A DNA stretch of 64,000 bases from Alphaproteobacteria bacterium (GCA_965227515.1 CBDDFZ010000001.1:2240001-2304000), one strand, 5' to 3'; shown: positions 12,711 through 23,712, numbered from the stretch's first letter. Notes: generated by a model from the sequence alone, not told the origin. Numbers and translations are program-made.

Positions 12711-15700
12711 ATGAGTGCGACGCTACGGCCCGATCCGCCGCTGTCGGAAATCGTTGAGGGTGCCGGCTCCCCGCTGTCCGAGCTAGCCGACCTGAACCCG
12801 GTCTGGCTGTGGGAGACGGACGCGGATCATCGCTTCGTCTGGCTGTCGCCAAATTGCAGCAGGCTGACGGGATCGAACCCGGAAGACTACATTGGGCGGT
12901 CGCGCGTCGAGCTGTTCAAGCGCTCGTCGGACCAGACCGAGTTGGCACGTCGGCACCTGGACGACCTGGCCCACCATCGCCCGTTCAATGATTTCGTGTA
13001 CCGCCACGTACGTGAGGACGGGAAAGCGGTTTGGTTGTGCGTCGGTGGCCGGCCGTGCTTCGACAAGTCCGGGCGGTTCACGGGTTATCAGGGCAGCACC
13101 GCGCACGTCAGCGCCATGCTTGAGTTCGCGGACCAATCGGTTGCCGGCGAGGCCGCCATGTTGCAGCGCAACGCTGAACTTGAGCGACGCGTGGCGGCGC
13201 GGACCAAGGCTGCTGACGAAACGACAGCGTTGCTGAGCGGTGTATTGGAAGGCATGGAGCAGGGTCTGATAGTCTCTAGCCTCGACGACATGGGCGAGCG
13301 TCGCATCGTGCTGGCCAACGAGCGTGCGAGCGAACTCCTGGAGATGCCCCCCGAGGTCTTGGATGTTGGAAAGTCTGCCGACGAGTTCATCGAGTTTTGC
13401 GCGCAGCGGGGCGATTTCGGCGAAGCGGGCAAGGCAGACGCGCGCGACCGGATCAGGCGTGTAACTGAGGGTTCAACCGAGACATTTGTCCGTCACCTGC
13501 CATCGGGCCGGAGCGTTCGGTCGCACATTAAGTCGTGCATTGACGGCAAGCACATCGTGACGCTGACCGATATCACCGACCTGATCGAGCGCAAACAGGC
13601 ACTGGAATCCTCCAACGAGCTTCTCGCTGAAGTTCTGGAGGGTACGGAGCATGGGTTGCTGGTCGTAACGGACGGCGCCCTCGAGCAGCAAAGGATTGTC
13701 CTGTCAAACCGGCGAGCGGCGGAGATATTGGAGTTCCCGCCGGAGATGCTGGCGGCGGGCGCGCCCGGCAAGGCGATTGTACAAACGTCAATCGACCGTG
13801 GCGACTTCGGCACCGACGGCGAAGATGCCCGCCGCCACACGGAGGTGGCCATACAGTCGGGCAAGCCGACGAACAACATTCGCCGGCTGAAGTCCGGCCG
13901 TATCGTGAAGTCCAAGGGATATCCGCGCCAGAATGGCGGGCTGATCATCACCTATTCCGACATCACCGAAATGAAGGTGCAGGAAGAGGAACTGCGCCGC
14001 GCGCTGGCCGTTGCCGAACTCTCCAAGAGCGTGTTCGATCGCCTGAGCACGCCAGTGCTCGTCAAGAACGAAGACCTTGAATTTGTCCTGGTCAATCAGG
14101 CGTTCTGCGACCTGCATGGCGTGACCAAGGAGCATGTCATCGGGCGGTCCGACATGGACCTGGATCTGACCGGCGGGGACCGGGCCGCCACCTACACCAG
14201 CTACGACCTCCACGTGCTGGAAACCGGAGAATTGCTGGATTTCGAAGAGGACGTTACACGGCCCGACGGCTCGATCCTCTCGACATACTCCCTGAAGACC
14301 AGGGTCGTGACCGAGAGCGGCGACAGGTACGTCGTTGCCGTCATTACCGACGTGTCGACGCTGAAGCAGCGCGAGGCGGATCTGGAAGCGGCACGCCGTG
14401 GCGCGGAAGCGGCCGACCGGGCCAAGTCCGAATTCCTCGCCAACATGAGCCACGAGATCCGCACGCCGATGAACGGCATTCTGGGCATGGGCGAGTTGCT
14501 GAAGGGCACCAACCTGGATTCCCGACAGCGCATGTACGCCGATGTCATCGTGCAGTCCGGCAACCTGTTGCTGAACATCATCAACGACATTCTGGACTTC
14601 TCGAAGATCGCCGCCGGCCAGCTGTCGCTGCATGTCGAGCCGTTCCAACTGGCCGATGTGGTGTGGGATGTGGCGACGTTGCTGTCGACGAGTGCCGACG
14701 ACAAAGGCCTGGACATGCCCGTGCGTGTGCAGCCCGACCTGCCCAGGGCCTTTGTTGGCGATCCGGGGCGCATACGCCAAATCCTGACCAATCTGGTCAG
14801 CAACGCCGTCAAGTTCACGGACAACGGCCACGTCCACATCGACGTTTCCGGCCAGGTCCGCGACGACGACACGGCACGGATTCTGGTCAAGGTGACCGAT
14901 ACCGGCATCGGCATTGCCGAGGAGCATGTCGCGACCATCTTCCAGAAGTTCAGCCAGGTCGACGGTACGGCGACGCGTCGTCACGAAGGTACCGGGCTTG
15001 GACTGACGATCTCCAAGCGTCTGGTCGAGATGATGCACGGCGAAATGGGCGTGGAGAGCAAGCCCGGACGGGGCTCCACGTTCTGGTTCGCCCTGCCGCT
15101 GCCGGTGGCGAGCGACTTCGGCCCGGCCGCGCAGGTCATGCAGGACATTTCCGGACGGCGGGTTCTGATCGTCGACGACAATGAGGTCAATTGCGCCATC
15201 CTGACCGAGCAGCTCGAGAGCTGGCAGGTGACGGCCAAGGCCGTGAACTCCGGCGCGAAGGCGCTGGGTGAGCTGAACAGCGCGGCGGCGCGTGGCGCGC
15301 CGTTTGAGCTCGCCATCCTGGACGCGCAAATGCCGGAGATGGATGGCATGTCGGTGGCCGCCGCCATCCGCCACAGCCCGATGATCAACCGAGTACCGAT
15401 CCTGATGCTGGCATCGGTCGATGGGCCGGAGGATCGATCCATCCTCGACCGGCTGCAGATTTCAGCCCACCTCGTCAAGCCGGCGAAGGCGCCGACCCTG
15501 CTTGCCGCCATCGCCAAGGCGATCGACGAGCCGGTCGAACCGCCGGCCGAGATCGCCGCTCCCGCGTCCACAGCAGGGGAGGATGCCGAACCCGTCGAGC
15601 AGCCCAGTGGCGTTGCCGAAGATGACGGGCGCTCGCTGACCGCGCGCGTGCTGATCGCGGAGGACAACCCGGTCAATCAGATGGTGCTGCAGCAGGTTCT

Positions 15701-16049
15701 GGATAACTGGGGCTACGACTATCTGATCGCCAATGACGGCCAACAGGCTGTCGACCTGTTCCGCAAGCATCGACCGGCCGTGGTGTTGATGGACGTTTCG
15801 ATGCCGGTCCTCAATGGACTGGATGCGACCCGCGCCATTCGCGAGATCGAGGGGCAGGACGGCGGCCACACGAAGATCCTTGGGGTCACGGCCCACGCGC
15901 TGAACGGCGACAAGGAGAAGTGCTTTGCGGTCGGCATGGACGACTATGTGCCGAAGCCGATCGATTGGACCCTGCTGCGCGAGAAGCTGGCGGAGGCCCT
16001 GGCTGACGTCGAAGGCGAGGAAGGACAGCCAGGCAAGATGGTCGCCTGA
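12711..16049 (+). CDS. Cytoplasmic hybrid histidine kinase (multiple PAS, HisKA, HATPase, two REC)
   Basis: WLWETD PAS start, [51 protein letters not shown]. Confidence 0.93.
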
Positions 16050-17358: not shown

Positions 17359-18693
17359 ATGACAAGACGCACCTTGACCGCACTGGGCACCGCGCTGGCC
17401 GTTGGCTTCAGCGCCGCCGGCGATGCTTCCGCCCAGGGCATCTCGCTGATTCGCGACGCCGAGATCGAGGCGACGATCCGGGCCTATACCCAGCCGTTGT
17501 TCCAGATCGCCGGGCTGAATCCGAACGCCATCGACGTCTACCTGGTCGATGACGACCGGCTGAATGCGTTCGTGGCCGGCGGCCAGAACATCTTCGTCAA
17601 CACCGGCCTGCTGTTGGCCTCCAACGATCCGGGCGGCGTGATCGGTGTGCTGGCGCACGAAACCGGCCACATTGCCGGCGGCCACCTGGCCCAGCTCCAT
17701 GCCGAACTCCGCGAGGTCAGCGCACAGACCATCCTGGCCTACCTGCTGGGCGCGGCGGCGGCGGTTGCCGCCGGGCGCGGTGACGTGGGTGCCGCGGTTA
17801 TCAGCGGCAGCACCGGCATGGGGCAGCGCTCCTTGCTGGCCTACAGCCGGGCGCAGGAAGCCGCGGCGGACCAGGCGGCGGTCAACTACCTCGACCGAGT
17901 CGGCTGGTCGGCGGTCGGGCTCGCCGACTTCCTGGAACTGCTGGAAGACCAGGAACTGCTGACCGCGAGCCTGCAGGACCCGTATTTGCGGTCCCACCCG
18001 CTGACCCGCGACCGGGTGGACCAGGTCCAGGGCCATGTCGCGCGCTCACCCTATTCAAATGCGCAATTCCCGCCCGCGTTCTATGAGATGCACGAGCGCA
18101 TGCGCGCCAAGCTCATCGGCTATACCCAAGGGGTCGCGCGCACGTTGCAGGTCTATCCCGAGATCGATGTCAGCCTGCCGGCCCGGTACGCCCGCGCCAT
18201 CGCCTATGCCAACCAGGGCAGCCTGGCCAATGCGCTGCCGCTGATCGACAGCCTGCTGGCGGACCTGCCGAACGACCCGTACTTCCTGGAACTGAAAGGG
18301 CAGGTGTTGTTCGAGCATGGGCGGATCGCGGAATCCATCGCGCCGCTGCGTCAGGCTTCCGCCCTGCTGCCGGACGCCGCGCCGATCCGCCTGCTGTTGG
18401 CCCGCGCCGAGCTGGAGTCCCAGGACCCGGCCAAGCTCGCGGCGGTGATCGACAATCTGAGCCAGGCGGCGCGGCTGGAGCCGGACAATCCGGCGATCTG
18501 GTACTTCCTGTCGATTGCCCATGGCCGGGCCGGCGATCTGGGTATGGCGGCGCTGGCCATGGCGGAGCGCAATTTCCACGCCGGCAGCGACGATGAGGCA
18601 CGGCAACAGGCCATTCGCGCGCAGCAGAACCTGCCCGAAGGGTCGCCGGGCTGGCTCCGCGCGCAGGACATCATCTCCGCCACCGACGATTAG
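17359..18693 (+). CDS. M48 metalloprotease with TPR repeats (BepA/YfgC-like)
   Basis: Signal peptide, LIRDAEIE, NAF, HETGH, YSRAQEAAAD, YLRSHP. Confidence 0.92.
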   Translation: MTRRTLTALGTALAVGFSAAGDASAQGISLIRDAEIEATIRAYTQPLFQIAGLNPNAIDVYLVDDDRLNAFVAGGQNIFVNTGLLLASNDPGGVIGVLAHETGHIAGGHLAQLHAELREVSAQTILAYLLGAAAAVAAGRGDVGAAVISGSTGMGQRSLLAYSRAQEAAADQAAVNYLDRVGWSAVGLADFLELLEDQELLTASLQDPYLRSHPLTRDRVDQVQGHVARSPYSNAQFPPAFYEMHERMRAKLIGYTQGVARTLQVYPEIDVSLPARYARAIAYANQGSLANALPLIDSLLADLPNDPYFLELKGQVLFEHGRIAESIAPLRQASALLPDAAPIRLLLARAELESQDPAKLAAVIDNLSQAARLEPDNPAIWYFLSIAHGRAGDLGMAALAMAERNFHAGSDDEARQQAIRAQQNLPEGSPGWLRAQDIISATDD

Positions 18694-18874
18694 GCGGGCC
18701 AGTCAGCCAGCCGAAGAATCAGCGTTAGCGCCGCGTGCCCTAGTCTGGCACTATCGCGCGTGGCGACGGATGACTGCGGTTGCGGCCGCAGGTCGACAGG
18801 CTAGGCGCGATCCGTCGGGCTGCCACAGTGTTGTGGCTGGGCGTTCATGGGCGTGTGGGGCGGATACGGTAGCC

Positions 18875-20428
18875 ATGATGGATGGTGGGGAGCTTGGCGT
18901 GCGTGCAACGGCGCGCCACGACTCATGGCGGCAGGTCGCCTTGGCCGAACGCCTCGCCGGTATCGGCCACTGGCAGTTCGATCCGAAGACCCGCACGTTT
19001 GACTTGTCGGACGGGGCGTTGCGGATGCTCGGGATGGAGCCGCCTGCCGGACCGCCGACGCTGGATGACCTGCTGGCCAGGGTTGCGCCGGACGACCGTG
19101 GCCGGGTCGGTGCCGGGTTTGACGATGCCATACGCAATGGCGCCGAGCTTTCCGTGGAGTGCTCCGTGGATGTGGAGGTTGGCCCGCGCAGGCTGGTGCA
19201 TTGGCGCGGTCTGACGGCGGACGATGGCGACGGCGCGACTCGGTTGGCGGGCTACGTGCGCGACCTCAGCGCCGAGCGGCGCGCCGAGGCGGAACGCATG
19301 TCCAGCGACCAGCGGTTCTTCACGCTGCTGGACAACATGCGCAACATCATCCTGTTGCGCAGCCGCGTCGATGACGAGGATATGCGCGCCGCGACGGTGT
19401 ATGGCGCCGACGCGGGTGCGATCACCGGCGTGTTCGGCGACGGGCCGGTCCACAAGACCCGCTGGCTGGAGGCGATCCACCCGGAGGATCTGCCCGAGTA
19501 CCTGGAGGCGGAGGCCCTGTGCCGTCGCGAGGGCGTGCCCTTCAATCTGCAATTCAGGTTTCGTCATGGCGAAACGGGCGTCGTGAAATGGGCGCGGCAG
19601 GTGGGCTGGATCGTCCGCGACGGCGGCGAGCAATTCTTCGAGAGCTATCTGCTCGACGTGACCGACCTGATCGCAGCGCAGGAGACCGCCTATGCCGCGA
19701 AACTGCAGGCCGAGCGGGCCAGCCAGGCAAAGTCGGACTTCCTTGCCTCGATGAGCTACGAGCTTCGCACGCCGATGAACGCCATCCTGGGGTTCACCCA
19801 GGTGATTGGCGAAGAACTGTTCGGGCCGCTGGGCAACGACCGTTATGTCGAATACATCGGCCACATCGACGAGAGCTCGCGCCATTTGTTGGGCCTGATC
19901 AACGACTTGCTGGATGTGCGCAAGATCGAGGCCTACGACCTGGACCTGCGGGAGACTGAGCTGGATTTGGCGGAGGCCGTGCATTCCGCGGCCGGCCTGA
20001 TTCGCCCGACCGCCGCCAGCAAGAACATCAGCGTGGCCATCGACCATATGGGCCGGATCGGTCTGATGGCGGACAAGCGCGCATTACGGCAGATCCTGTT
20101 CAACCTGCTGTCCAACGCGATCAAGTTCACCGATCGTGGTGGGCGGATCGACGTCGGGGCGGAACGCCTGGCGGACGGCGCCACCCGCATTTTCGTCACC
20201 GACAATGGGTGCGGCATTCCGCCGGAGGATATCAGCCGGATCATGGAGCCGTTCTCCCAGATCAACGCCACCCATGTCGCCAGCGCCGAGCGGGGTGTTG
20301 GACTTGGGCTGTTCCTGGTGCAGCGTCTGGCGGAATGGCACGAGGCGTCGGTGCAGGTGCAGTCGCGCCCCCATGACGGCACCACGGTCAGCGTTGTCTT
20401 TCCCGCCGCGCGAGCCCTGGGTGCTTGA
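18875..20428 (+). CDS. PAS-PAS histidine kinase-like protein with Tyr at the phospho-His position (start uncertain)
   Basis: H-box FLASMSYELRTPMNAI (TAC at 19757-19759); intact NLLSNAIKFT, DNGCGI, PFSQ, GVGLGL. Confidence 0.9.
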   Translation: MMDGGELGVRATARHDSWRQVALAERLAGIGHWQFDPKTRTFDLSDGALRMLGMEPPAGPPTLDDLLARVAPDDRGRVGAGFDDAIRNGAELSVECSVDVEVGPRRLVHWRGLTADDGDGATRLAGYVRDLSAERRAEAERMSSDQRFFTLLDNMRNIILLRSRVDDEDMRAATVYGADAGAITGVFGDGPVHKTRWLEAIHPEDLPEYLEAEALCRREGVPFNLQFRFRHGETGVVKWARQVGWIVRDGGEQFFESYLLDVTDLIAAQETAYAAKLQAERASQAKSDFLASMSYELRTPMNAILGFTQVIGEELFGPLGNDRYVEYIGHIDESSRHLLGLINDLLDVRKIEAYDLDLRETELDLAEAVHSAAGLIRPTAASKNISVAIDHMGRIGLMADKRALRQILFNLLSNAIKFTDRGGRIDVGAERLADGATRIFVTDNGCGIPPEDISRIMEPFSQINATHVASAERGVGLGLFLVQRLAEWHEASVQVQSRPHDGTTVSVVFPAARALGA

Positions 20429-20615
20429 GTCGTGGTGGGTCGGCTGGGTCGGACCCTCGCGGGGATTTGACACCGACGTCGCGGTTTTCCCGGTCGCCGG
20501 CAATGAGTTGATCGCCGCTGCTGCCCGGTTGATGGCATAGTGGTCCAGAGGGGCACTGACTTGGGGGGCATTCGGCTTCGCCCACGCATGGGTCGAGGCC
20601 GACCGGCAAACACCG

Positions 20616-22277
20616 ATGTCTGCTAGCGATCGCAACCACGTCGATGGGGCGGGCGACGGCGTGAGCCGTGCCGCAGACGATGCGCCGCAGGGCATGGCGG
20701 CATCGATAGCGGCCGGTCCGGACGGCGCGCACTTCGGGCTGGCCGAAATCGAATCGGGCTTCGGCTATTGGGCGATGTCGGAGGGCGGTGCCGGCGTGGC
20801 CATGACGCCCAGCGCCTGCCGCCTCGTCGGGCTGCCGCCCAGCGATGCCCTTGTCGACCTGCAACGCCTGTTCGATCGTTTCACCCCTCCCGAACGGCAG
20901 GCCCTGGATGCCGCGCTGTCGGCGTGCCTGATGCGTGACGAGCCCCTGGCCTTGACGCTGGAAACGGTGCCGATCGACGGTGAGCGCCGGCAGCTCAAGT
21001 TCCATGCGGAGCTGGATGTCTCGGCTGATGGCCGCACACGCCGTGTGTGCGGCGTGTTGCAGGACGTGACCGAAGGGTACGAGGCGGCGCTGGAGCGCCA
21101 GCGCGGCGACCAGCGCCTGTTCTCGTTCCTGGAGAACCTGCGCGACATCGTGTTCTGCCGTGGCAGCAGCACGGTGCGCGTGCAGAAAGGCCTTGCCGGT
21201 ACCGCGCACGTCTATGGCGAGGATGCGTATGCGATTGTCGGCGTGCCGCGGGGGGGCATCTTCGACAACGAGGTCTGGTTGCGCTCGCTGCATCCGGACG
21301 ACCGCGATGGATATCGGTCGGTGCTCGCCAAGAGCTACCGAGCGCGCGAGCCCTACACGGTGCAGTACCGTTTCGGTGGGGCCGACGGCATGCGCTATCG
21401 CTGGGCGCGCGAAACCGGTTGGATCGTGTTCGATCCCGACACTGCCGAGCCGTATCACGATCGCTATATCCTGGATGTCTCGGACCTGGTGACCACGCAA
21501 CAGACGGCGCGGACCGCGCAAATGGCTGCCGAGCGGGCGCTGAAGGCGAAATCAGAGTTCCTCGCCGCGATGAGCCACGAGTTGCGGACGCCGATGAATG
21601 CCATCATCGGGTTCTCTGACATCATCGAGCGCCAACTGTTCGGGCCGGTCGACAACCGGCGTTATCGCGCGTACATCCACGACATTCGCGCCAGCGCCCA
21701 GGCGCTGTTGGGGCTGATCGACGACCTGCTGGACGTGAGCCGTATCGATGCCGGACGCTTCGTGCTTCACGAGGAGGACATCGTGCTTGGCGACCTGGTG
21801 GCCGACGCGGTGCGGGCGGTCCATTCCAGCGCCATGGACGAGAACATCGCCATCGTGTCCAACGTGGCCGACTGCACCGTGCGTGCCGACCGCCGGGGCC
21901 TCTGGCAGATTATCTACAACCTGCTTGCCTATGTGGATCAGTCGGTCTCGTCCTCGGTGCCGCGCTCGTTCGAGGCCGACCTGACCGAGGACGGTGGGAT
22001 CAGGCTGGTGGTGCGCGACGATACCGCCGCGGGTGACGGCCAGAGCGGCGAGCGGTTCATGCAGGGGGATGCCGAAGACGGCGTGGACCGCAGCATGCGT
22101 TCGTTCTGGGTGCTGGACCGTGCGAGCCCGATGCTGGGCATTCCGCTGGTGCGGCGCCTGTTGGATCTGCACGGCGGCACGCTGACCATCCGGCGCGGCG
22201 ATGGCGGCGTGGTCACGGCGGTCGCGACCCTGCCGCCGGGCCGGGTCGTGCAACCGACCGCGGAAGCCGCGGACTGA
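20616..22277 (+). CDS. PAS-PAS histidine kinase-like protein with intact His but degenerate ATP-binding domain
   Basis: H-box FLAAMSHELRTPMNAI; N box reads NLLAYVDQ, G1 reads DDTAAG, G2 reads SPMLGI. Confidence 0.88.
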   Translation: MSASDRNHVDGAGDGVSRAADDAPQGMAASIAAGPDGAHFGLAEIESGFGYWAMSEGGAGVAMTPSACRLVGLPPSDALVDLQRLFDRFTPPERQALDAALSACLMRDEPLALTLETVPIDGERRQLKFHAELDVSADGRTRRVCGVLQDVTEGYEAALERQRGDQRLFSFLENLRDIVFCRGSSTVRVQKGLAGTAHVYGEDAYAIVGVPRGGIFDNEVWLRSLHPDDRDGYRSVLAKSYRAREPYTVQYRFGGADGMRYRWARETGWIVFDPDTAEPYHDRYILDVSDLVTTQQTARTAQMAAERALKAKSEFLAAMSHELRTPMNAIIGFSDIIERQLFGPVDNRRYRAYIHDIRASAQALLGLIDDLLDVSRIDAGRFVLHEEDIVLGDLVADAVRAVHSSAMDENIAIVSNVADCTVRADRRGLWQIIYNLLAYVDQSVSSSVPRSFEADLTEDGGIRLVVRDDTAAGDGQSGERFMQGDAEDGVDRSMRSFWVLDRASPMLGIPLVRRLLDLHGGTLTIRRGDGGVVTAVATLPPGRVVQPTAEAAD

Positions 22278-22323
22278 TCCTGGCCCAGGCCTCTCTCCCG
22301 CCCGGGGTCGCTGCGGTTGGCCG

Positions 22324-23712
22324 CTACTCCAGCGCCTTGACGATGTCCTCGCACATCTTCTTGGCGTCGGCGAACAGCATCATTGTGTTGTCGCGATAGA
22401 ACAGCGGGTTGTCGACACCGGCGTAGCCGGAGCTGAGCGACCGCTTGACGAACAGCACCGTCTTAGACTTCTCCACATCAAGCACCGGCATGCCGTAGAT
22501 CGGGCTTGAGGTGTCGGTCTTGGCGGACGGGTTGGTGACGTCGTTGGCGCCGATGACGAAGGCGACGTCGGTCTGGGCGAAATCGCGGTTGATCTCCTCC
22601 AGCTCCAGCACCTCGTCATAGGGCACGTTGGCCTCGGCCAGCAGCACGTTCATGTGCCCCGGCATGCGGCCCGCGACCGGGTGGATGGCATAGCGCACCT
22701 TCACGCCCTCGCGCTTCAGGATCTCCGCCATCTCGCGCAGCGCATGCTGGGCCTGGGCCACCGCCATGCCGTAGCCGGGCACGATGACCACCGACGATGC
22801 GTTCGACATGATGAAGGCGGCGTCGTCGGCGCTGCCCTGCTTGACCGTGCGGTCCTCGTCGTCGCCCGCCGCCGCGGTGGTCTCGCCACCGAAGCCGCCC
22901 AGGATGACGCTGACGAACGAGCGGTTCATGCCCTTGCACATGATGTAGCTGAGGATCGCGCCCGATGCGCCGACCAGCGCGCCGGTGATGATCAGCAGCG
23001 GGTTGTGCAAGGTGAACCCGATGCCGCAGGCCGCCCAGCCCGAGTAGGAGTTCAGCATCGAGATGACGACCGGCATGTCGGCACCGCCGATGGGGATGAT
23101 CAGCAGCAGGCCCAGCAGCAGCGCCAGCAGCACGATCAGCCACAGCAGGATGCCCGGCTCCCAAATCGAGAACAGGATCACCAGCAGCACCAGCAGGCAG
23201 CCGAGCCCCAGGTTCAGCCAGTGCTGGTACGGGAACACCACCGGCTTGCCGGACACCAGGCCCTGCAGCTTGCCGAAGGCGATGATCGAGCCGGTGAACG
23301 TGATCGCGCCGATGGCGGCACCGATGCTCATCTCGATCAGGCTGAGGCCCTTGATGCCCTCGCCGGTGGCATCCAGCAGCCCGAAGGCGGCCGGGTCGTA
23401 GAACGCGGCCAGCGCGACGAACACGGCCGCCAGGCCGACCAGGCTGTGGAACGCGGCGACCAGTTGCGGCAGCGCCGTCATCTTGATGGTGCGCGCGATG
23501 TAGGTGCCGATCGCACCGCCAATGATGATGGCGATCAGGATCAGGATGTAGCTGTCGACCTGCGGGCCGGTCAGGGTGACGATCACCGCGATCGCCATGC
23601 CGGCCATGCCGTACTGATTGCCCCGTCGCGCGGTCTCCGGCGACGACAACCCGCGCAAGGCCAGGATGAAGCAGATGCCGGAGATCAGGTACATGATCGT
23701 GACGAAGGTCAT
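22324..23712 (-). CDS. pntB: NAD(P) transhydrogenase subunit beta
   Basis: PQLVAAFHS, IGGADMPVV, PGYGMAVAQAQ, HPVAGRMPGHMNVLLAEA. Confidence 0.98.
   Translation of the reverse strand: MTFVTIMYLISGICFILALRGLSSPETARRGNQYGMAGMAIAVIVTLTGPQVDSYILILIAIIIGGAIGTYIARTIKMTALPQLVAAFHSLVGLAAVFVALAAFYDPAAFGLLDATGEGIKGLSLIEMSIGAAIGAITFTGSIIAFGKLQGLVSGKPVVFPYQHWLNLGLGCLLVLLVILFSIWEPGILLWLIVLLALLLGLLLIIPIGGADMPVVISMLNSYSGWAACGIGFTLHNPLLIITGALVGASGAILSYIMCKGMNRSFVSVILGGFGGETTAAAGDDEDRTVKQGSADDAAFIMSNASSVVIVPGYGMAVAQAQHALREMAEILKREGVKVRYAIHPVAGRMPGHMNVLLAEANVPYDEVLELEEINRDFAQTDVAFVIGANDVTNPSAKTDTSSPIYGMPVLDVEKSKTVLFVKRSLSSGYAGVDNPLFYRDNTMMLFADAKKMCEDIVKALE

Follow-up and report, generated by a model that had tools for sequence, protein, structure and literature searches.

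In a window of 64,000 nucleotides, the whole stretch of DNA that was analysed (Alphaproteobacteria bacterium, GCA_965227515.1 CBDDFZ010000001.1:2240001-2304000), we examined two neighbouring sensor kinase genes on the + strand. Gene 1 (517 residues) and gene 2 (553 residues) lie 187 bp apart, and their features are listed in Table 1 by position in the window. The two proteins, both soluble-looking, align from end to end (BLASTP: 517 aligned columns, 33% identical, E 1e-70), and both are built of two PAS domains, a dimerisation and histidine phosphotransfer (DHp, HisKA) domain and a catalytic and ATP-binding (CA, HATPase_c) domain. In gene 1, the HisKA and HATPase_c domains scored 56.0 bits (Pfam cut-off 26.9) and 98.2 bits (cut-off 26.4), respectively, and the codon for the phospho-acceptor His is replaced by a Tyr codon (atg agc tac gag ctt cgc acg ccg, SYELRTP). 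In gene 2, HisKA scored 67.7 bits (cut-off 26.9), whereas HATPase_c scored 21.8 bits, or 24.6 bits in the genome scan, both below the cut-off of 26.4. Compared with a competent HisKA kinase, gene 1 lacks the His, and gene 2 lacks the HATPase_c score and the residues of the N, G1 and G2 boxes. At the level of sequence, the ATP-binding function and the phospho-acceptor His lie on different proteins, which is one of the features of a split kinase.

The defects were counted on a profile of the DHp-CA core, to which 245 database homologues were aligned. In this alignment, conservation reached 90% or more in 53 columns, of which 29 belong to the DHp domain with its linker and 24 to the CA domain. 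Gene 1 departed from three of the 29 DHp columns (His295Tyr, Leu301Met and Gly354Tyr) and matched every one of the 24 CA columns. Gene 2, in contrast, departed from a single DHp column, through the Leu to Met change also seen in gene 1, and from 15 of the 24 in the CA domain. Its N box carries Asn to Tyr, Lys to Gln and Phe to Ser changes, and both G1 Gly residues, the F-box Phe and Gln and two G2 Gly residues are changed, among others. Because the other homologues deviated at a median of 1 of the same 53 columns (90th percentile 4), the defect pattern of the pair is far beyond the ordinary variation among homologous kinase cores.

A frameshift hidden in the gene 2 CA domain was considered and rejected. 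The other two frames contain stops and none of the motifs, and the G+C content at third codon positions (GC3) is 0.88. An AlphaFold2 model of gene 2 reached a mean predicted local distance difference test score (pLDDT) of 81.3 on a 40-row alignment that leans on canonical homologues. It kept the architecture of PAS-PAS-DHp and CA sandwich, the sole parts of low confidence being the N-terminal tail, one PAS2 loop and the region of the lid (about residues 469-507). The initial annotation had described the two genes as paralogues, one with a Tyr H box and a full CA domain and the other with His and an eroded CA domain in a frame that stays open. The end-to-end alignment, the column count and the intact reading frame bear out this description, and all of the motifs that it quoted were found where it had placed them.

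Table 1. Features of the tandem kinase pair (positions in the window)
Feature	Position	Strand	Basis
Gene 1 (P0001): PAS-PAS-HisKA(Tyr)-HATPase_c, 517 residues	18875..20428	+	Open reading frame, translation, Pfam
Gene 1 PAS domain 1, residues about 28-122	18956..19240	+	Weak PAS_PdeA match (E 0.0096); alignment with PAS1 of homologues
Gene 1 PAS domain 2 (PAS_3), residues about 141-270	19295..19684	+	Pfam, alignment
Gene 1 HisKA/DHp, residues 285-353	19727..19933	+	Pfam HisKA, 56.0 bits; genome scan, 60.1 bits
Gene 1 TAC codon, Tyr295 replacing the phospho-acceptor His	19757..19759	+	Sequence, homologue alignment, read contigs
Gene 1 Tyr354 replacing Gly (95% conserved) at the DHp-CA junction, EAG to EAY	19934..19936	+	Conserved-column count
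Gene 1 HATPase_c (CA), canonical N, G1, F and G2 boxes	20072..20410	+	Pfam; column count, 0/24 deviating
Intergenic spacer, 187 bp	20429..20615	+	No consensus terminator or sigma-70 promoter
Gene 2 (P0002): PAS-PAS-HisKA(His)-degenerate HATPase_c, 553 residues	20616..22277	+	Open reading frame, translation, Pfam
Gene 2 PAS domain 1 (PAS_4), residues 66-153	20811..21074	+	Pfam; AlphaFold2 model, pLDDT about 90
Gene 2 PAS domain 2 (PAS_3), residues 204-275	21225..21440	+	Pfam
Gene 2 HisKA/DHp, residues 311-380, canonical save the Leu to Met change common to gene 1	21546..21755	+	Pfam, column count
Gene 2 His321 codon, kept phospho-acceptor followed by E-x-x-T phosphatase motif (HELRT)	21576..21578	+	Translation, alignment
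Gene 2 degenerate CA, residues 425-541, with 8-residue lid insert; sandwich fold predicted	21888..22238	+	Pfam, alignment, AlphaFold2, column count

Duplication, strain variation and selection

In an IQ-TREE phylogeny of nine rows, genes 1 and 2 were sisters (support 95/92), and the canonical kinase P0122 was their next relative (84/88). This position agrees with the paralogy noted above. Because the two genes are sisters and P0122 is canonical, both defects date from after one duplication. A canonical kinase, PAS-PAS in architecture and PleC/DivJ/PdhS in type, was duplicated once in tandem, and both losses followed in this lineage. The branches of the two genes measured 0.74 and 1.07 changes per column in the same tree, and the pair has therefore been retained for a long time since the duplication. 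The DHp domains of genes 1 and 2 are 58% identical to each other and 58% and 61% identical, respectively, to that of P0122. Compared with the CA domain of P0122, that of gene 1 is 51% identical and that of gene 2 30%. Genes 1 and 2, P0122, P0123, P0124 and P0004 make up a small subfamily that is set apart by its PAS2-DHp region. PAS2 itself (residues 141-270 of gene 1 and 160-290 of gene 2) is a distinctive subtype. The PAS2 domain of P0122 is 52-61% identical to PAS domains from different architectures, HWE-type kinases and proteins that lack a kinase core among them.

Relatives were searched for in several collections. In a collection of 5.8 billion proteins, both proteins were singletons at 90% clustering, and the nearest relatives were 40% (gene 1) and 35% (gene 2) identical. 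The H-box His was present in 119/119 other listed homologues of gene 1, and PF02518, by a reading of the table, in 119/119 other listed homologues of gene 2. Forty-one related genomes gave no match above 40% identity, and the five best loci, which were inspected, were all canonical kinases without a defective neighbour. No relative was found among 181 pattern matches in JGI metagenome contigs, and GTDB contigs queried with the outgroup P0122 gave a best identity of 44% and no orthologous pair. A search with PAS2 alone returned 13 proteins, none of them a pair, and all six with a complete H box have His. One protein from this search, P0245, stops 11 residues past its H box, which also carries His.

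The Tyr codon was compared with read contigs. Logan contigs of four runs from four studies (X1, X2, X3 and X5) were compared with the window over 18700-22400. The X1 contig spans the whole of this region with no differences and may derive from the source run. Over the codon, record 11 of X2 (19569-19888) showed no differences, record 18 of X3 (19544-19860) three, and record 27 of X5 (19659-19858) one. A high-depth C was also seen at 19757 in all four runs; the left-over depth (12, 4.2, 2.9 and 3.1) equals the depth of the orthologous contigs. The C-bearing contigs were numerous and short, as expected for the H boxes of other kinases at 80% likeness. The orthologous contigs of all four runs carry T at 19757, as read from this depth arithmetic rather than from per-contig letters, and a sequencing error was therefore rejected. 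X3 differed from the window at 20 of 858, 8 of 1299 and 31 of 1234 letters. Tyr295 is thus common to strains 1-2.5% apart and is not private to one isolate. TAC at 19757-19759, which the initial annotation had proposed to confirm in reads, is thus borne out by four runs of four studies. The same annotation had proposed a test of selection (dN/dS), which for gene 2 turned out as follows.

Twenty-five X3 differences were classed; the contig used, record 22, has 31 differences, of which 26 are listed and one of these lies past the gene. Among the differences listed, the PAS2-DHp part of gene 2 had 15 synonymous and 2 non-synonymous changes against its X3 orthologue, a ratio of non-synonymous to synonymous polymorphism (pN/pS) of 0.04. 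The CA part had 4 synonymous and 3 non-synonymous changes, with a pN/pS of 0.28 based on small numbers. These results demonstrate that gene 2 is under purifying selection and is not decaying as a whole. No indels were found in gene 2 in the X3 contigs. In one X2 contig of depth 2.3, one base is missing at window 21950, in the degenerate N-box region of gene 2, and this gap may be a low-depth assembly error or a real frameshift of that strain. For gene 1, six N-terminal differences from X3 were listed, three synonymous and three non-synonymous. The ATG of gene 1 at 18875 sits within a longer TTG-started frame that begins at 18515, and the start codon is putative. A 3-base insertion, CGC, was seen behind 18805 in X2 and X3, inside the TTG frame and 70 bp 5' of the ATG.

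Locus surroundings and Tyr-substituted kinases

The genes flanking the pair are unrelated to signalling. An M48/TPR peptidase (+) lies upstream, the transhydrogenase genes pntB and pntA (-) lie downstream, and an aminotransferase (-) is a further neighbour. A scan of 18400-22500 found no consensus terminator or sigma-70 promoter between genes 1 and 2, with counts no higher than in shuffled sequence. A hybrid kinase of 1112 residues (12711-16049, +) with several PAS domains, HisKA, HATPase_c and two receiver domains is encoded 2.8 kb upstream, and no histidine phosphotransfer (HPt) domain was detected in it. Its receivers are the closest to the pair, and the closest frame for a stand-alone regulator begins near window 35148, in line with the remark of the initial annotation that no cognate regulator is adjacent. 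Fifty receiver matches were listed for the genome, about eight of them in frames shorter than 185 residues. As a protein with a His-bearing, ATP-dead DHp domain, gene 2 could in principle act as a ChpT-like phosphotransferase for the hybrid kinase.

The genome of the pair (G000; two contigs, 4.07 and 1.45 Mb) was scanned for kinases. Of its 47 HisKA matches, 45 have His and two have Tyr, namely gene 1 and a DivL orthologue. HATPase_c scored over the cut-off in 46 of the 47, the sole exception being gene 2. The only dead-CA kinase of the genome therefore adjoins one of only two that lack the His. The other Tyr kinase, L053 (G000:C1:589617-592232, -), is an 871-residue frame with NVSYELRTPL and a DivL-type DHp domain. 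Its best solved match is DivL (4q20, 167.3 bits), its HATPase_c domain scored 104.2 bits, and it is the DivL orthologue of the genome. A ChpT-like PF10090 match was also found at C1:1378310-1378678 (-, 59.6 bits). Since the DivL orthologue and the ChpT-like match are both present, the genome probably has circuitry of the CckA-ChpT-CtrA type. At least 13 of its kinases have PleC/DivJ-type H boxes (SHELRTPLNAIIGF...), an apparent family expansion, and two of these, at C1:3955541 and C1:3956819, adjoin each other. The initial annotation had likened the DHp domains of the pair to those of PleC/DivJ-type kinases. The best NCBIfam models were indeed DivJ (NF050805; 207.2 bits for gene 1 and 104.8 for gene 2) and PdhS (NF041593; 189.7 and 111.6 bits), though the scores fall far under the equivalog cut-offs of 1000 and 2000, and both matches cover only the DHp-CA core. 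By these scores, the core of the pair looks like that of DivJ/PdhS/PleC kinases, yet the two genes are not their orthologues.

We also surveyed Tyr kinases over 401 genomes of the class using a DNA pattern for S-Y-E-[LF]-R-T-P-x-N. The pattern matched in 90 genomes, the reversed control matched in none, and only three genomes had two matches. Besides gene 1, 32 of the 93 matches were inspected, and 31 of them were of the DivL type; 29 of 30 loci had the DivL-type DHp pattern YFGxLNxRQxEY. Over the 24 CA columns, 29 DivL-type sequences were inspected, and 20 of these keep the domain with 1-3 deviations, almost always at the F-box Gln. L073 and L080 have 2 and 4 deviations. More degenerate DivL-type CA domains, with 7-15 of the 24 columns changed, were seen at L059-L061, L074-L076 and L079; some of these rows are gapped or cut, and the counts for L060 and L079 include gapped columns. 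The remaining match belongs to another family of the class. It is a PleC-type REC-HisKA(Tyr)-HATPase_c protein of 399 residues with NMSYELRTPL (L084:7025-8224, +, in G247:C7). This kinase has no CA deviations (0/24), and its neighbour, 49 bp further on, is an ordinary PAS hybrid kinase rather than a dead-CA paralogue. A partial receiver frame precedes it, and a phage-type integrase gene lies just downstream.

Gene 1 was rejected as a DivL orthologue. DivL 4q20 was only its 11th solved match (83.6 bits), the best being 7z8n (122.9 bits); its sister gene and the outgroup have His, and the genome has a DivL orthologue elsewhere. Because the sister gene and the outgroup have His, the Tyr of gene 1 arose independently of DivL. 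The two proteins share a Tyr in a HisKA DHp domain (SYELRTP), a retained CA domain and an alphaproteobacterial host that also has a ChpT-like gene. They differ in that gene 1 is a soluble-looking protein of 517 residues with two PAS domains and a PleC/DivJ-type LFGPLG hairpin. DivL (Tyr550) has neither kinase nor phosphatase activity, binds trinitrophenyl-ATP (TNP-ATP) weakly (57 µM), senses DivK~P and retains the CA fold despite the His to Tyr change (PMC4211667).

Readings of the pair and related systems

In the best single reading, to which we give a probability of roughly 35%, the two proteins form a heterodimer that works as one kinase. They would pair via their DHp helices, and the CA domain of gene 1 would phosphorylate His321 of gene 2 in trans. 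The DHp domain of gene 2 would then either donate the phosphoryl group to a response regulator unlinked to the pair or take it off one, and both proteins, with as many as four PAS inputs, would determine the output. Once gene 1 had lost its His, the CA domain of gene 2 would have had no target in the heterodimer and would have been free to decay, while that of gene 1 would have to stay. The His of gene 2 would likewise have to be kept for trans-phosphorylation. The clean complementary asymmetry of the pair would fit such a mechanism, because a cis mechanism or independence of the two genes predicts none. From this sequence pattern we infer the heterodimerisation, the trans-phosphorylation, the inactivity of each protein alone and the target. 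Weak hints in the same direction may come from the DHp hairpin, whose charge of -4 (gene 1) or +1 (gene 2) places the two genes in opposite tails of the distribution over 250 homologues (mean -1.84, sd 1.3), and from Gly354Tyr at the DHp-CA hinge.

Complex prediction with the two DHp-CA halves gave a score of 0.53, graded as weak support, compared with 0.02 for the best of three controls, and this value does not distinguish heterodimer pairing from the dimer fold that kinases have in general. The runs agreed in at least 79% of contacts with a partner pLDDT of at least 67, and solved kinase homodimers may drive the score. In the benchmark of this score at 0.60 or below, 18 of 157 solved complexes reached the mark, and so did both of the 2 mismatches, out of 215, that passed. 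The prediction left the odds for the heterodimer unchanged.

Several observations weigh against the heterodimer. The interface carries no sign of co-evolution, since the DHp domains of the two genes are no more identical to each other than to that of the outgroup. The genes are separated by a gap of 187 bp that bears no sign of translational coupling. In the genomes, proteins, metagenomes and GTDB contigs searched, no orthologous pair was found beyond one near-identical lineage. The pair was also chosen from a very large scan, in which two chance degenerations could coincide. Finally, the intact CA domain of gene 1 is compatible with a non-catalytic pseudokinase and is no proof of catalysis, because DivL is non-catalytic and most of the DivL-type sequences inspected keep a near-canonical CA domain.

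Split kinases are known from chemotaxis. In Rhodobacter sphaeroides, CheA3 and CheA4 do not autophosphorylate separately but do so together (Amin, Porter and Soyer 2013, PMC3591291). The same paper counts 1556 of 42417 HisKA proteins in SMART without HATPase, 711 of them with a phosphatase motif, and predicts that these may be split kinases (PMC3591291). As in the present pair, catalytic function and His lie on separate proteins, and the His-bearing CheA partner may also be a phosphatase. The CheA proteins are, however, not of the HisKA class, and their missing domains are wholly absent. The present genes are full-length sister paralogues that keep the disabled pseudo-domain and two PAS sensors each. 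A laboratory version of the same defect pairing is reportedly the work of Yang and Inouye in 1991, in which a His-minus EnvZ was complemented by an ATP-site mutant, an artificial pair unlike this one. Ashenberg et al. are said to have worked on DHp specificity and handedness. The Mycobacterium tuberculosis proteins Rv0600c and Rv0601c reportedly divide the two functions, ATP binding falling to one and the His to the other. They belong to the Rv0600c-Rv0601c-tcrA system, in which two adjacent sensor kinases serve one regulator (PMC3544749). Those proteins are short single-function fragments with an adjacent regulator, whereas the present genes are full-length paralogues without one.

CckN of Caulobacter is a phosphatase of the PleC/DivJ family and shares the DHp-CA family of gene 2. 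It has no detectable autokinase activity and needs His47, and a G1-box mutant acts in vivo (bioRxiv 10.1101/2020.04.29.069633). CckN was phosphorylated when both DivJ and ATP were present, and trans-phosphorylation in a heterodimer was proposed by the authors (bioRxiv 10.1101/2020.04.29.069633). CckN is thus a protein whose His is needed and whose ATP binding is dispensable, as may hold for gene 2. Unlike gene 2, which has lost 15 of 24 CA columns, it keeps all catalytic residues, and the partner proposed for it is no neighbouring His-less paralogue. ChpT and Spo0B, two His phosphotransferases derived from kinases, have dead CA-like domains. In common with gene 2, they combine a DHp dimer that bears the His with a CA-like domain that is degenerate and makes no use of ATP. 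Gene 2 differs in having two PAS domains and in being a recent derivative of a HisKA kinase; it was rejected as a member of the ChpT/HPTransfase family, since a search up to E 0.1 gave no match to PF10090. Few heterodimers of sensor kinases have been reported, and the ChrS pseudokinase works through its paralogue (PMC9491836). RetS-GacS heterodimers are inhibitory (PMC12189002). RetS-GacS resembles the proposed heterodimer in its heteromeric sensor-kinase contact via DHp, and differs in that RetS is an inhibitor and not half a kinase. In the literature searched, which excluded subscription journals, we found no description of two full-length HisKA paralogues that form a native pair and bear complementary point defects. 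A search for cis or trans autophosphorylation of PleC/DivJ returned no paper that uses the phrase. That the pair is an obligate heterodimeric HisKA kinase, formed by complementary degeneration of tandem duplicates into a His-less and an ATP-site-less subunit, is a tentative proposal that we consider somewhat unlikely.

The alternative ranked close behind the heterodimer is that the two genes are independent, specialised non-kinases whose adjacency reflects only the tandem duplication, a possibility that we also hold to be rather unlikely. Gene 1 would be a DivL-like pseudokinase whose DHp-CA surface, with Tyr in the active site, senses a phosphorylated regulator and regulates another kinase. 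Gene 2 would be a phosphatase or phosphotransfer protein like CckN or ChpT, using its His and E-x-x-T motif without a need for ATP. The properties of DivL (same His to Tyr change, no kinase or phosphatase activity, CA fold kept; PMC4211667) and the 20 of 29 DivL-type sequences with 1-3 CA deviations speak for this, as do CckN, with its required His47 and active G1-box mutant (bioRxiv 10.1101/2020.04.29.069633), and ChpT and Spo0B. The 13 or more kinases with PleC/DivJ-type H boxes offer possible real phosphodonors or targets. The hybrid kinase upstream has two receivers and no detected HPt domain, and the Tyr kinase of G247 stands without a dead-CA partner. Independence requires, however, that two rare events coincide in sister genes. 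Tyr was found in none of the 119 listed homologues of gene 1, PF02518 was present in all 119 of gene 2, and only one of the 47 kinases of the genome has a dead CA domain. Gene 1 is not the DivL orthologue (7z8n 122.9 bits against 4q20 83.6 bits, compared with 167.3 bits to 4q20 for L053), and gene 2 does not match PF10090 in a genome that has a separate ChpT-like gene.

A regulatory role comparable to RetS-GacS, in which a catalytically competent kinase is inhibited or scaffolded by hetero-oligomers of the two proteins, or of one of them and another kinase, is improbable. Its precedents are the RetS-GacS and RetS-PA1611 heterodimers that modulate signalling (PMC12189002) and the CA-frameshifted ChrS pseudokinase, which alters signalling via its paralogue HrrS (PMC9491836), and many PleC/DivJ-type paralogues are present in the genome. 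Such a role involves no phosphotransfer between partners and leaves unexplained why gene 1 has its full set of ATP-binding residues and gene 2 its His and phosphatase motif. We regard it as very improbable that gene 1 is itself an active kinase that autophosphorylates on Tyr295 or phosphorylates another substrate, with gene 2 unrelated to its activity. This would agree with the fully canonical CA domain of gene 1, and tyrosine autophosphorylation of DivL in vitro was reportedly observed early on by Wu, Ohta, Zhao and Newton in 1999. We know of no established chemistry for transfer from phospho-Tyr to Asp in HisKA kinases. Later work found no DivL autokinase activity (PMC4211667). Equally far-fetched is that one or both genes are functionless relics on the way to loss. 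Their confinement to one lineage, the faster evolution of the gene 2 CA domain (24-30% identity against 51% between gene 1 and P0122) and the single low-depth X2 contig without a base at 21950 would fit decay. The pN/pS of 0.04 in the PAS2-DHp part of gene 2 among the differences listed, the frames intact in the window and in X3, and the coding GC3 of 0.83-0.88 argue against it. Despite the long branches, gene 1 has kept all 24 CA columns, and gene 2 has kept 28 of the 29 DHp columns.

Implications

The evolutionary part of the account is supported by the sister duplicates, their complementary loss and the real TAC codon, and the mechanistic part is plausible from the sequence pattern. The pair is a variant on the split-kinase and pseudokinase theme, found in one lineage as far as the searched collections show. 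If the two genes were instead independent, they would represent a non-DivL His to Tyr pseudokinase of separate origin and a newly formed ChpT/CckN-like protein, which would be useful for studying how kinases are repurposed.

Histidine kinases are usually taken to be insulated homodimers. If the heterodimer is real, a native pair that is mutually incomplete would be a ready-made system for studying heterodimer specificity, the cis or trans direction of autophosphorylation and half-of-sites catalysis. Ultrasensitivity and bistability have been attributed to split kinases in modelling work (PMC3591291), and the pair would extend the split-kinase idea from CheA to orthodox sensor kinases. An obligate heterodimer would prove native trans-autophosphorylation and would combine four PAS sensors in a two-protein AND gate. 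It would also be a natural counterpart of the intermolecular complementation of EnvZ and a clean bacterial case of constructive neutral evolution, in which duplication and complementary loss would make paralogues dependent on each other.

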